DNA of 34,131 bases. Origin: a virus (lineage: Duplodnaviria; Heunggongvirae; Uroviricota; Caudoviricetes). Position 1 is the first letter of the stretch; each line of letters opens with the position of its first letter. The position numbers were made by a program. The stretch is taken from IMG/VR virus record IMGVR_UViG_2541047807_000011; one strand, given 5' to 3'. Below are positions 1 through 3,000 of this stretch, piece after piece.

Positions 1-3000
1 ATGCCATTTGCTCGTTATTTCTGCATTTTCATAAACGTTGGTTTGGGAGAAGGTGCTCCAGCTATTGGCGTTCCGTTCTTCTGGCCGTCCGCCGCAATGC
101 CAGATACCGTAATCGAAAGCTGGTCCAGTATGGTGTTTTTGAAGTTCAACGGCGCGAAATTTTCTGCCTCTGATTACCCTGTGCTGGCAAAAGTGTTTCC
201 TTCGCTGGTATTACCTGAAGCCCGCGGTGATTTCATTCGTATCTGGGATGACGGGCGAGGTGCAGACGGTGGTCGCGAATTATTAAGCTGGCAGGCAGCT
301 ACAAACTTTTCTCAGTTTGCCGGGAATATAGGCGGAGGTGCGGGACACACAATTAACTTTCATGATGGCATCGCCGGAAATCAGCCAGGATTTTCACGAT
401 TTAATTTCACCAGTAACTCTGTGGGTGATGGTGTGAATTTTGTTGCTGTCAGACCGCGAAATATTGCATTTAACTTTCTGGTGAGGGCTAAATAATGAAA
501 CCTGTTTTTGATGAAAATGGACTGGCTACAGTGCCGGGCGATATGCGTTGTTTTTATTATGATGCTGAAACATCTGAGTATACGGGCTGGTCTGATGAAT
601 ATATTAATACTGGCGTAAGTATGCCCGCCTGTTCCACTGGTATTGACCCTGGCGAAAATATTCCGGGAAAAGTGGCTGTATTTACAGGTAAGGGATGGAG
701 CCATGAAGAGGACCATCGCAATGAGACTGTTTACTCAATCGAAAATGGCGCAGCTGTTACAGTGGATTATATCGGTGCCATCAAAAACGGTTATGTCACG
801 CTTTCACCGTTAACGCCATACGATAAATGGGATGGTGAGAAATGGGTGACGGATACCGAGGCACAGCATAGCACCGCTGTAGAAGCGGCAGAAGCACAGC
901 GCCAGTCACTAATTGATGCAGCAATGGCTTCCATTAGTCTGATTCAGCTGAAATTACAGGCCGGGCGGAAACTGACGCAGGCAGAAACAACCCGGCTTAA
1001 CGCTGTGCTGGATTACATTGACGCGGTGACGGCAACAGATACCAGCACCGCGCCGGATGTCATCTGGCCTGAACTGCCGGAGGCGTAGGCCATTCAATAT
1101 CGGGTGCTGTTGACGTATCAACACGCATCAGCAGCACACGGTATTTCTTCCATTGGGTGAGAGTTGAAGTCTCTTCATCAGTTGCAATGCCCGCATCAAC
1201 AGCATCCTGACGCCAGGATATTTCACTGTCAGCTTTTGCACGAAGTGTGGCTTTCATGTTTTCTGCATCTGATATTTTCTGTTCTGGTGAAAGCGGAGGC
1301 TCATCAACCCATGCAAGGGCCCCTGAAACCATTCCCAGCATTTTTCCTGTTGGCTTATTTCCCCCATTAAATCTGACAGCATCCTCATCGCTGATTTCAA
1401 TACCATCCTGCGGCCATGTCCCCTCCTTGATATAACTTTCATATAGCGCTGCGTTGTAGATTGCATTTTCGGACGGGCTGTAAACACTTTTAACTTTATT
1501 CATTCTGTTATCTCCCTTTCGCTATATAGCAAAGATTAAACCCACCGGCACCTGACATACGGGCTGTAAAACCCGTTCTTGAAGTACCAGTTGAGTTAAC
1601 TCCATAAGCAGGCATGGTTGCTGGAGAAAGCAGAGACTCCTGGATATCTGCCATTGTCAGTGTAATTGATTCGACCCGCGTGGGGAAAGGTAGCGGGAAA
1701 ACAACATTCGTCCCTGTCTGTCCAACGGGGAAACCGAAAATACCCCATTGTGTAATTACCCCATCCGGCCCCTTACTCCATCCAGATTTACTATTCGGCC
1801 AGTCTGCTGCTCCAGAGTACCCCGTTGTAAAACTACTCATATCTGGTACTTGCCCGGGACCTGTTCCGACGTTCCTCGTTGCAGCTGTTCCCAAACCAAG
1901 GTTTTCGAGAGCCGTTGGTACTGTGCCGTCCGATTTGATATCGCCAAACGGATTTTTGCGGCTTAACAGCAACGCGCGAAGCGCGGTAAGTAGCTGATCC
2001 GTTTTTTTGGGGTCAGGTTGAATATGTGCACCACCAAGAACATTAAGGAGTTCCTGCTGTAAATCACGGGTTGCCCCCTGCTGATTGTTTAAATAACCAG
2101 CAGTCACGAGGGTTCCTTCTATCCCCTGAGTGGGGTCACCATCATGAAACAATTGATCCGGTGTATTTATCGGGGGCATCAGATTTTGCATTACTGCTCC
2201 TCCTTATATGTGAAATGGCAATAAGTAAAAGCGGGTTTAAGGTCTTTAAATGTTTCTTCCAGTACAGGGGCACCAAAGGAAAGTAACGGCTCCCCGGCAG
2301 CAGATACTCCGGTTCTGAATCTGTAGGCTGGCGTTCTGCTTCCTGTGACATTAACCTGCCAAATCCATCGGGCATCTGTTATATAGAGACGATCACCACA
2401 TCGGTTTACCCCCGTTCTGAATGGATGGAGTTCAGTAATTGTTATGGTGTACCCGAGGCTGGCTGCAAGTTGTTTAAAATAAGGGATAGATAACCCACCA
2501 GTTGCAGCCATCTTTATAAGAATATTTTCTCGGCGTTCCTGCTGTGTGGCACCATCGCGGGGTATTACTCCATACACTCGTTCCCAGTCAGACAGCGTCA
2601 TGGATGCGTAAAATGGTGTGACAGATGCGAGCACTCGTGCAGCTGACGCTTTTACTTCATCCATAATGGCTGCTTCTGCGTTCAGTTCTGCTGAAATATA
2701 TTTCCCGTTCGGGTCATAGCTGACCGGCGGTAACATGGCACGGAATAAATCAACCGTATTCATGTATTAACTCTCCCTGGGAAATGGCTGGATATCAATA
2801 CTCCCCGGACGCAGCCACTCCCATGTGGATTCATTGACAACTGCTTTTACATTATCTGACGGCATAATAATCCGCCGATCACTGACGCCAGAAATTAATG
2901 AAATCTGAGTTTCCAGTTGTGAAATAATTAATTCCTGCCCCGGTTCCAGTCGGTTCATAAAATCCGTGATAACTTCAGTTATCTGTGGTTTTATCTGTTC

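Follow-up and report, generated by a model that had tools for sequence, protein, structure and literature searches.

At its left end, the 34,131-nucleotide stretch of viral DNA analysed here (the window) carries a tail-fibre locus that raises two questions: whether the DNA between two apparent crossover sites inverts and, if so, which enzyme inverts it. The sites are 26 bp long, imperfectly palindromic, inverted with respect to each other and equal in their central dinucleotide (TT/AA), as in the Hin, Gin, Cin and Pin systems. The left site (26 to 51) reads TTTTCATAAACGTTGGTTTGGGAGAA, has its central TT at 38-39 and lies within codons 9-17 of an open reading frame (ORF) at 1-495; the right site (1886 to 1911), whose reverse complement is CTCTCGAAAACCTTGGTTTGGGAACA, has AA at its centre (1898-1899), within the fibre gene's codon 98. 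Both are of the pix type: the left site is identical at 26/26 positions to the pinE-proximal pix site of the e14 element, and the right site at 24/26 to the pix site inside stfP of e14. Identity to gix and cixL is 16-19 of 26 positions, and to gix alone 16-17 of 26. The two sites have in common the 11-bp TTGGTTTGGGA, which begins with the central TT, and together they form the highest-ranking inverted repeat of region 1-2400. With up to two mismatches allowed, the motif AAACSWWGGTTTGGGA matches solely at these two places in the 34 kb (chance expectation 0.07), a count that was reached in 0 of 100 shuffles. The inner half of the right site, TGTTCCCAAACC, differs at two positions from the TTCTCCCAAACC carried by the 15 relatives examined. 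An initial annotation, made from this DNA alone, had described two inverted Hin/Gin/Cin-like sites of 26 bp, a shared sequence at a TT core, and a right site near codon 98 of the fibre gene with the left site in the same codon phase. These points are borne out, the right core falling in codon 98 of the 227-aa fibre ORF and the left core lying in phase within ORF 1-495.

The invertible segment spans 38 to 1899 (1862 bp, both core dinucleotides included). In the present state the fibre gene (1508 to 2191, minus strand, 227 aa) consists of a constant part (1900-2191, about 97 codons), the final 35 or so residues of which are near-identical to StfP of e14, and a variable part (1508-1897) with a gp53-like C-terminal domain (PF21882 Gp53-like_C, E = 1.7e-10). 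Directly upstream is a baseplate wedge gene of the Mu gp48/YmfQ type (2191 to 2763, minus strand; PF10076 Phage_Mu_Gp48, E = 2e-30), which marks the late operon driving whichever fibre is attached. The assembly chaperone for the currently expressed C-terminus (1060 to 1503, minus strand, 147 aa; PF02413 Caudo_TAP, E = 3e-33) is 42% identical to e14 TfaP in its C-terminal half. On the plus strand, ORF 1-495 encodes a silent alternative C-terminus of the StfE type; it is promoterless, 164 aa long and 45% identical to e14 StfE, with which it shares the leader MPFA.YF.IFINVGLGEG, and its residues 17-164 are fused to the constant part once the segment is inverted. The tail-collar-like domain previously suggested for this ORF is a weak call: a PF07484 Collar match is present, but at 16.5 bits it is under the 24-bit cut-off. 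The chaperone for this alternative C-terminus, of the TfaE type (495 to 1088, plus strand, 197 aa; PF02413 Caudo_TAP, E = 5.4e-27), is 63% identical to e14 TfaE. In-silico inversion of 38-1899 yields a continuous fibre ORF of 249 aa, in keeping with the initial proposal of an in-frame inversion of about 1.86 kb; and with one Caudo_TAP chaperone for each C-terminus, the cognate assembly protein is swapped together with the tip, as had also been proposed.

Our analysis reveals that this segment does invert in nature, with exchange at the site cores, and that isogenic lysogens differ by the inversion alone. In genome GCA_903976795.1 this prophage occupies the same chromosomal site. Its left flank (host DNA, phage end and the invertase-gene stub described below) matches the window's source at 3152/3152 nt, and the next 5442 nt match the window at 5442/5442 positions with exactly 38-1899 reverse-complemented, as against 1424 mismatches to the unflipped window. 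The 249-aa fusion predicted from the window is encoded there and is an exact entry in the protein collection, and the chaperone of 495 to 1088 stands immediately 3' of this fibre on the same strand. The inner half-sites are exchanged as predicted, the left site now containing the right site's inner half, and the exchange is thereby narrowed to the 11 bp common to both. Similar pairs occur among relatives: 20KM0223N and MEI148-20EC share the insertion site (host flank 600/600) and identical flanks, and their segments match at 1874/1874 positions when flipped; GPEC349-628 and GPEC1176 share the phage-host junction, with the segment matching at 1825/1825 when flipped; and E2348/69 matches tcmA_3 and E423 at 1906-1907 of 1911 positions when flipped. 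In total, at least four independent clean flips, three of them in relatives, are found among 16 related loci and the window's own pair. An assembly artefact behind the orientation differences was rejected, as independent complete genomes carry the flipped copies on unbroken sequence between identical flanks.

The breakpoints can be placed only within the shared repeat, so the enzyme cannot be named from sequence alone, and general RecA-dependent homologous recombination between short inverted repeats might be thought sufficient. However, the perfect inverted repeat in the window is just 11 bp, well below the 20-30 bp or so that RecA-mediated exchange in E. coli needs. The repeat is, moreover, a genuine pix site whose core is the same in both copies, and it has been used cleanly and independently at least four times. 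We therefore regard the RecA route as very improbable.

The switch sits at the fibre end of its carrier, a Mu-like transposable prophage of E. coli. This prophage has a Mu-like baseplate (Mu gp44-48 type) and tail, MuA and MuB genes, and termini with TG at the ends and TTCTGGGCG motifs repeated at both. The repressor-end terminus, placed by the divergence point of three loci, resembles the fibre end in its TG start and TTCTGGGCG repeats and not in the whole 20-mer; an identical 20-mer terminus was sought at the repressor end of the prophage and was not found. The initial annotation expected an invertase gene just left of the window, and an autonomous switch like the G segment of Mu would have an intact gin/pin/cin gene of about 190 aa at that place. 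An invertase frame does begin there, 30 nt left of position 1 and beyond a 29-bp spacer, and it points away from the segment like pinE in e14 and gin in Mu. However, it ends after 31 codons: in the source contig, which matches the window at 8191/8191 bases, codons 1-31 of a pin-like gene (MFIGYVRASTNDQDTDLQRNALSCTEYELIF, then a stop) are followed by a phage end of 117 nt beginning TGTAACTTCGCG. Homology to pinE stops at nt 93 of the gene; the spacer region is also homologous to e14. Host DNA takes over at the Mu-type prophage end, 240 nt to the left of position 1; the same is seen in 15 related loci, and the flanking host DNA differs from locus to locus from exactly this point on in all 16 loci examined. 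Autonomy of this kind has a negligible chance of being right, and for the source contig it is already refuted.

The gene was not found elsewhere in the prophage. A tblastn search with PinE gave no significant match to a serine recombinase in the window or at the repressor end, and a location of the invertase at the other prophage end was accordingly dropped. Nor is an invertase annotated in the region in the examined members of 24 E. coli genomes with the family's gp48/fibre N-terminus. Thus, where Hin, Gin, Cin and Pin systems have an adjacent or internal serine invertase gene of about 190 aa, only codons 1-31 and a stop are present here, and the phage's own invertase is absent.

The loss is old. 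The stub is common to 17/17 genomes matching stub and phage end at no less than 95% identity, at many insertion sites, and is also present in an 89.6%-identical relative, which indicates that the truncation predates their spread. Same-site pairs with no mismatch over several kb differ solely by a clean inversion, and the inversions must therefore be far younger than the truncation. This bears on the possibility that the switch is a fossil, with the segment locked in place and the two orientations either predating the loss of the invertase or acquired by cassette exchange with other prophages. The invertase gene is indeed dead, and single orientations are seen in all four assemblies of E2348/69 and in the short-read assembly Logan SRR770129, which has an identical 227-aa fibre and is unbroken across the right junction in the orientation of the window, so that a mixed population is not indicated in that sample. 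Cassette exchange among prophages is clearly frequent as well, given that 2855 of 5426 genomes contain matches to the fibre and chaperone cassettes. Yet a locked segment is hard to reconcile with a truncation older than the spread of the 17 genomes and same-site pairs that differ by clean inversion only, and we consider it improbable.

Since isogenic lysogens differ solely by the inversion, the element still flips in nature though its carrier encodes no invertase. We think it highly probable that this host-range cassette is a non-autonomous e14-type switch that has kept its sites and a candidate enhancer, with Pin-family invertases from co-resident prophages flipping it in trans. As to the enzyme itself, we infer that other prophages resident in the cell supply it from their Pin-family genes. 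In the proposed mechanism, the late operon runs through gp48 into the 97-codon constant fibre N-terminus, and a serine invertase would turn 38-1899 around by strand exchange at the TT in the centre of each 26-bp site. The constant part would thereby be joined in frame either to the gp53-like tip, as at present (227 aa), or to the StfE-like tip (249 aa), each tip carrying its own assembly chaperone immediately downstream. The prophage's own invertase gene is cut to its first 93 nt, a stub that adjoins the transposase-binding phage end, so the prophage is unable to flip the segment alone. Pin-family genes of other resident prophages would provide the invertase in trans, and the stub would act as the Fis-binding enhancer that wild-type invertases of the Pin/Gin/Cin/Hin family require.

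Cross-complementation among Gin, Cin, Pin and Hin is classical, and pinE-like DNA is widespread: of 5426 complete E. coli genomes, 4826 contain it, 2521 of them over at least 80% of its length. In the yeiP strain pair, which is not the window's own pair, seven places per strain match a composite query of junction, pinE and pinR, a figure that is a count only. A plasmid-borne hin is known to flip a reporter with its own hin inactivated (PMC4513852), and PinQ of prophage Qin inverts the e14 P segment in trans (Kirigo et al., Nucleic Acids Res 2025, PMC12529663). In the latter case the invertase of one prophage flips the fibre segment of another, which is the mechanism proposed here. The K-12 arrangement differs in that the target still has PinE, and PinQ and PinR are orphans, invertases that have no segment of their own; the present locus is its mirror image, an orphan segment without an invertase in a phage that otherwise looks complete. 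Taken together, the orphan segment here and the orphan PinQ and PinR of K-12 suggest a pool of invertases and segments used in common by E. coli prophages.

What, then, does the stub contribute? Wild-type Hin is essentially Fis-dependent in vivo (PMC4513852), and its enhancer is described in the Hin papers as 65 bp long with a Fis site at each end. In P1, the Cin enhancer is annotated at nt 19-90 of cin (GenBank AF234172); the stub corresponds to nt 1-93 of the homologous gene, and its truncation point is 3 nt past the end of the annotated region. A crude motif scan places two Fis-like 15-mers (G-N13-C) at nt 22-36 and 71-85 of the stub, where pinE, gin and cin also have them, and the G and C end positions of both are kept in all aligned family members. 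The centre-to-centre spacing of the two motifs as placed is 49 bp, to be compared with the 65-bp enhancer of Hin. In addition, in relatives whose fibre is fixed the shared phage end extends no further than ...CCCTCA, which is exactly the stub start. From the homology to the annotated P1 feature and the motif scan, we infer that the retained stub may be a cis-acting Fis-binding recombinational enhancer.

A further step would be that selection has kept the stub as a stand-alone enhancer, and that this transposable-phage lineage has outsourced its host-range switch, retaining only the cis elements (two pix sites and the enhancer) and drawing invertases from unrelated prophages of the same cell; we would put the chances of this at about even. 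Alternatively, the invertase may act in trans and the stub be a mere deletion remnant, with another Fis-binding sequence serving as enhancer or with an enhancer-independent invertase. The stub of the window has three lineage-specific substitutions in or beside the distal motif, and in the diverged relative OkiPb01676 the stub is not conspicuously conserved but is more different than the phage end, which is unlike strong purifying selection. As enhancers act at a distance and in either orientation (PMC3798978), another chromosomal site could in principle serve, and Fis-independent invertase mutants are known (PMC4513852). A chance remnant, however, would have had to end just past the annotated P1 enhancer, a point that is also at the edge of native phage-end DNA, and to keep the G and C ends of both motifs throughout the family. 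We consider a remnant stub unlikely, though worth serious attention.

In its layout the locus closely resembles the P segment of e14 in K-12 (stfP-tfaP-tfaE-stfE, pinE). Both have a YmfQ/gp48-like gene followed by fibre, chaperone, inverted chaperone and an inverted promoterless fibre C-terminus; in both, the crossover lies within a near-identical 35-aa linker ending ENLGLG, at about codon 97 of StfP in e14; and the stub region is homologous to the spacer and to nt 1-93 of pinE. Thus the pix sites, the ENLGLG crossover, a length of about 1.8 kb, the opposed chaperones and the silent StfE-type C-terminus are all present. The initial annotation considered the small segment and short constant part unusual, a view that the 1797-bp e14 segment (PMC12529663), with its equally early crossover, does not support next to the 1862 bp here. 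In contrast to e14, where pinE is full-length and adjacent, only its nt 1-93 have a counterpart here; the carrier is a Mu-like transposable phage rather than the e14 element; and the cassettes have diverged (fibre 36%, ORF 1-495 45%, chaperones 42% and 63% identical).

Mu G/Gin and P1 C/Cin likewise combine a constant N-terminus with an alternative C-terminus and chaperone. In Mu, as in the present carrier, the fibre switch comes last in the late operon, beside the right phage end, and in P1 the annotated enhancer is within the 5' part of the invertase gene. The G segment, however, measures about 3 kb and the constant part about 170 codons, and in Mu intact gin, com and mom lie between segment and phage end, all of which are absent here; a Mu relative, SfMu, also has gin intact according to the SfMu paper. 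Membership in the Mu G segment was rejected on the basis of this absence, the pix-type sites (Mu has 34-bp gix repeats) and the only marginal similarity of Mu S, U and U' to the fibre and chaperone proteins of the window. In one relative (E. coli 47-1826), the segment measures 2316 bp and includes a third pix-like site together with an additional promoterless cassette for a C-terminus, an arrangement that can be likened to multiple-inversion systems such as Min of plasmid p15B and the shufflons; the window, unlike these, has two sites and two alternatives only.

No sequenced phage in the phage collection showed this arrangement when window 1-8000 served as query; the best matches spanned no more than 14% of it and were confined to the cassettes. 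Among species-representative genomes, the gp48-like protein identified just two loci, both distant (45-49% identity) and with no invertase nearby, and these do not inform the ancestral state. The literature searched for an invertase-less or orphan invertible segment, or for this prophage, contained nothing relevant.

The switch itself is textbook and adds little, being an e14-type P segment in a Mu-like phage; its type, small size and short constant part are already known from e14, and only the invertase-less architecture is unusual. With the gene cut 3 nt past the region of the P1 cin enhancer, the locus offers a natural minimal cis set (two sites and a candidate enhancer) for dissecting inversion in trans. 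If the outsourcing proposed above is true, host-range diversification would depend on which other prophages a lysogen carries. In annotation, such stubs ought not to be taken as a sign of a dead switch. A weaker possibility, drawn by analogy with the StfE2 result in e14, is that the 142-aa chimera formed at the left junction in the flipped state (MPFARYFCIFINVGLG plus the gp53-like domain) might affect the adsorption of other phages; close variants of this chimera are present in the protein collection. Fused StfE-type fibres, for their part, are currently mislabelled 'integrase' in RefSeq.

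The window covers the greater part of a transposable, Mu-like E. coli prophage; the late genes are on its minus strand, and the MuA (31853-33895) and MuB (30941-31834) genes occupy its right part. It matches contig KE700456.1 (GCA_000458455.1) with 0 mismatches over the 8,191 nt compared, and a protein from this contig is assigned by its source record to E. coli HVH 162. The Mu-type tail and baseplate run (tape measure, DNA circularisation and gp44-48 homologues) ends with a gp48/YmfQ-like gene at 2191-2763.

The two inverted sites described in the initial annotation are present at 26-51 (TTTTCATAAACGTTGGTTTGGGAGAA, central TT at 38-39) and 1886-1911 (reverse complement CTCTCGAAAACCTTGGTTTGGGAACA, central AA at 1898-1899). 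They form the top inverted repeat of the region and have in common 11 bp that start with the central TT; a degenerate core motif occurs at two places only in the 34 kb, both of them these sites, against a chance expectation of 0.07. The fibre ORF (minus strand, 1508-2191, 227 aa) has the right core in its codon 98 and a gp53-like C-terminal domain as its present tip; the left core has the same codon phase in ORF 1-495. Both genes between these two ORFs are Caudo_TAP fibre-assembly chaperones. The predicted in-frame fusion holds, as in-silico reverse complementation of 38-1899 gives an open fibre of 249 aa. The tail-collar-like domain ascribed to ORF 1-495 is seen as a resemblance, but one that falls under the Pfam threshold.

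The proposed invertible tail-fibre switch is real and active, as an assembly with the prophage at the same site carries the exact inversion of 38-1899. The 249-aa fusion predicted from the window is an exact protein-collection sequence, encoded on a single 198,735-bp contig. In contig CAJDEO010000005.1 (GCA_903976795.1), reached via an identical chaperone protein, the prophage has the same host-gene neighbours as in the source of the window, and the left flank (host DNA, phage end and a stub of an invertase gene) is identical over 3,152 nt. The next 5,442 nt equal the window with 38-1899 inverted, whereas the unflipped window gives 1,424 mismatches. The inner half-sites are swapped, the left site ending GGGAACA and the right site beginning TTCTCCC, so the exchange was confined to the shared 11 bp holding the core. 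Other strains behave alike: 20KM0223N and MEI148-20EC carry the same insertion beside yeiP with identical flanks, and their segments match (1874/1874) only with one flipped; GPEC349-628 and GPEC1176 have their phage-host junction in common and segments that agree at 1825/1825 when flipped; and E2348/69 matches tcmA_3 and E423 at 1906-1907 of 1911 positions when flipped.

At the right site, the inner half (1886-1897, TGTTCCCAAACC) differs at two positions from the TTCTCCCAAACC of relatives (15 of 15 examined). This divergent half-site has nevertheless demonstrably recombined, and offers a natural example of how much half-site variation is tolerated. In several read sets, Logan assemblies contain 142-143-aa proteins (P0010-P0013) that join the leader of ORF 1-495 (MPFARYFCIFINVGLG) to the gp53-like tip; they represent the chimera formed at the left junction when the segment is flipped, and are analogous to e14 StfE2, for which a block of T2 adsorption has been reported (PMC12529663).

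In E. coli K-12, the defective prophage e14 carries a homologous arrangement, the invertible P segment, with the gene order ymfQ, stfP, tfaP, then inverted tfaE and stfE, then pinE. The left site is identical to the pinE-proximal pix site of e14 at 26 of 26 positions and the right site to the pix site within stfP at 24 of 26; the e14 crossover also lies at about codon 97 of StfP, and the 35 residues ahead of it are nearly alike in the two fibres. The initial annotation regarded the small segment and short constant part as unusual, but both are the norm of the e14 type and unremarkable, since the e14 P segment shares them (1,797 bp (PMC12529663), against 1,862 bp here). At 36-63% identity, the cassettes themselves have diverged from their e14 counterparts, and their proteins are scarcely similar to Mu S, U and U'. 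This is, then, an e14-type P segment on a Mu-like phage, a kind of switch already well known.

An intact invertase was expected just left of the window. Instead, the source contig contains, left of position 1, a 29-bp spacer, a 93-nt stub, the phage terminus and then host DNA. The stub is oriented away from the segment, as is pinE in e14; it starts ATG TTT ATA GGC and encodes MFIGYVRASTNDQDTDLQRNALSCTEYELIF before a stop, and nucleotide homology with pinE runs out at nt 93. The 117 nt after the stub are the terminus, which starts TGTAACTTCGCG at 240 nt from position 1. Sixteen loci of different strains are conserved to the terminal TG and unrelated past that point, and at the repressor end this phage family likewise has a TG start and the same TTCTGGGCG repeats, which together show a true phage end. 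A tblastn search with PinE, run on the window and on three loci spanning the repressor end, gave no significant match. The prophage is without an invertase of its own.

General (RecA) recombination would be inefficient across a repeat of 11-16 bp, so the reasonable agent of flipping is a site-specific invertase that acts in trans. The other prophages of the cell would supply it, and candidate genes abound: pinE-like DNA is found in 4,826 of the 5,426 complete E. coli genomes that formed our survey base, near full length in 2,521, and the two yeiP strains have seven places each that match a composite query (junction, pinE and pinR). PinQ acts in trans across prophages on the e14 segment (PMC12529663), and plasmid-borne hin acts on a reporter with inactivated hin (PMC4513852). 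The segment is an orphan: its sites remain, its enhancer probably does too, its enzyme is gone, and other prophages of the cell probably flip it. Such an architecture, an invertible segment without its own enzyme, is the interesting residue.

Invertases of this family depend, in wild-type form, on a cis-acting enhancer bound by Fis; the element measures 65 bp and usually lies some 100 bp away from one of the sites (PMC3798978), and Fis dependence has been shown in vivo (PMC4513852). The Cin enhancer is annotated at nt 19-90 of cin in the P1 GenBank record; the homologous gene survives in the stub as nt 1-93, which puts the equivalent region some 87-158 bp away from the left core. In a crude motif scan, the stub has two G-N13-C Fis-like 15-mers (nt 22-36 and 71-85), positioned as in pinE, gin and cin and spaced 49 bp as placed; three private substitutions of this stub fall in or beside the distal one. 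In family members with a fixed fibre, the phage end is common only up to ...CCCTCA, exactly where the stub begins, so the element here consists of native phage end joined directly to the candidate enhancer, spacer and pix site. On these sequence features the stub is moderately likely to be a recombinational enhancer, a prediction that is suggestive, not proven. A pinE deletion mutant has a locked P segment despite pinQ (PMC12529663), which is compatible with an enhancer within the 5' part of pinE but equally explained if native expression simply makes PinE the main enzyme; it is therefore not counted as evidence for the enhancer.

The stub-plus-end region occurs in 19 of the 5,426 genomes (17 at at least 95% identity, two at 89.6%) and the family-specific gp48 and fibre N-terminus in 24. 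The stub was therefore truncated before the lineage spread to its many insertion sites. E. coli OkiPb01676 (NZ_AP042480.1) has the same phage end and stub at 89.6% identity, in a more diverged transposable prophage in which a DUF2612 gene replaces gp48 (locus L011, 4001-4238). Its stub differs more than its phage end does, a point that weighs against the enhancer reading, and the 31-codon stub protein is 100% identical to PinE, suggesting that a resident pin gene was the donor in a gene conversion. The four further members of the Mu-like family that were examined, AVS0151, SCAID WND1-2021, Ec55 and AH19B041 (L027-L030), lack the invertible segment, and this region holds no invertase in any of them. 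After a 100-codon constant fibre N-terminus they have a long fibre gene that is fixed, and then the same phage end; three carry the N-terminal piece as a pseudogene fragment annotated on its own.

E. coli 47-1826 (NZ_CP184839.1) has a 2,316-bp segment with an extra promoterless fibre C-terminal cassette (L002, 4465-4940) and, ahead of this cassette, a third pix-like site (AGCATGAAAACGTTGGTTTGGGGGAA); by analogy with multiple-inversion systems, this three-site arrangement could yield more than two fibre variants. Fused StfE-type fibres (for example, WP_395760235.1) are labelled 'integrase' by the RefSeq pipeline (L008 4731-5492, L015 5682-6443 and L007 4725-5492), which looks like a mislabel propagated from adjacency to invertase genes in other prophages. 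The module or its neighbours also decay in several relatives (L013 5719-6396 and L017 6175-6396 in tcmA_3 and E423; L016 4241-5379 in 160-11H1; L007 5492-5878), for example by frameshifted or split fibre genes, frameshifted chaperones and, in GPEC349-628, a deletion spanning gp48 and gp47.
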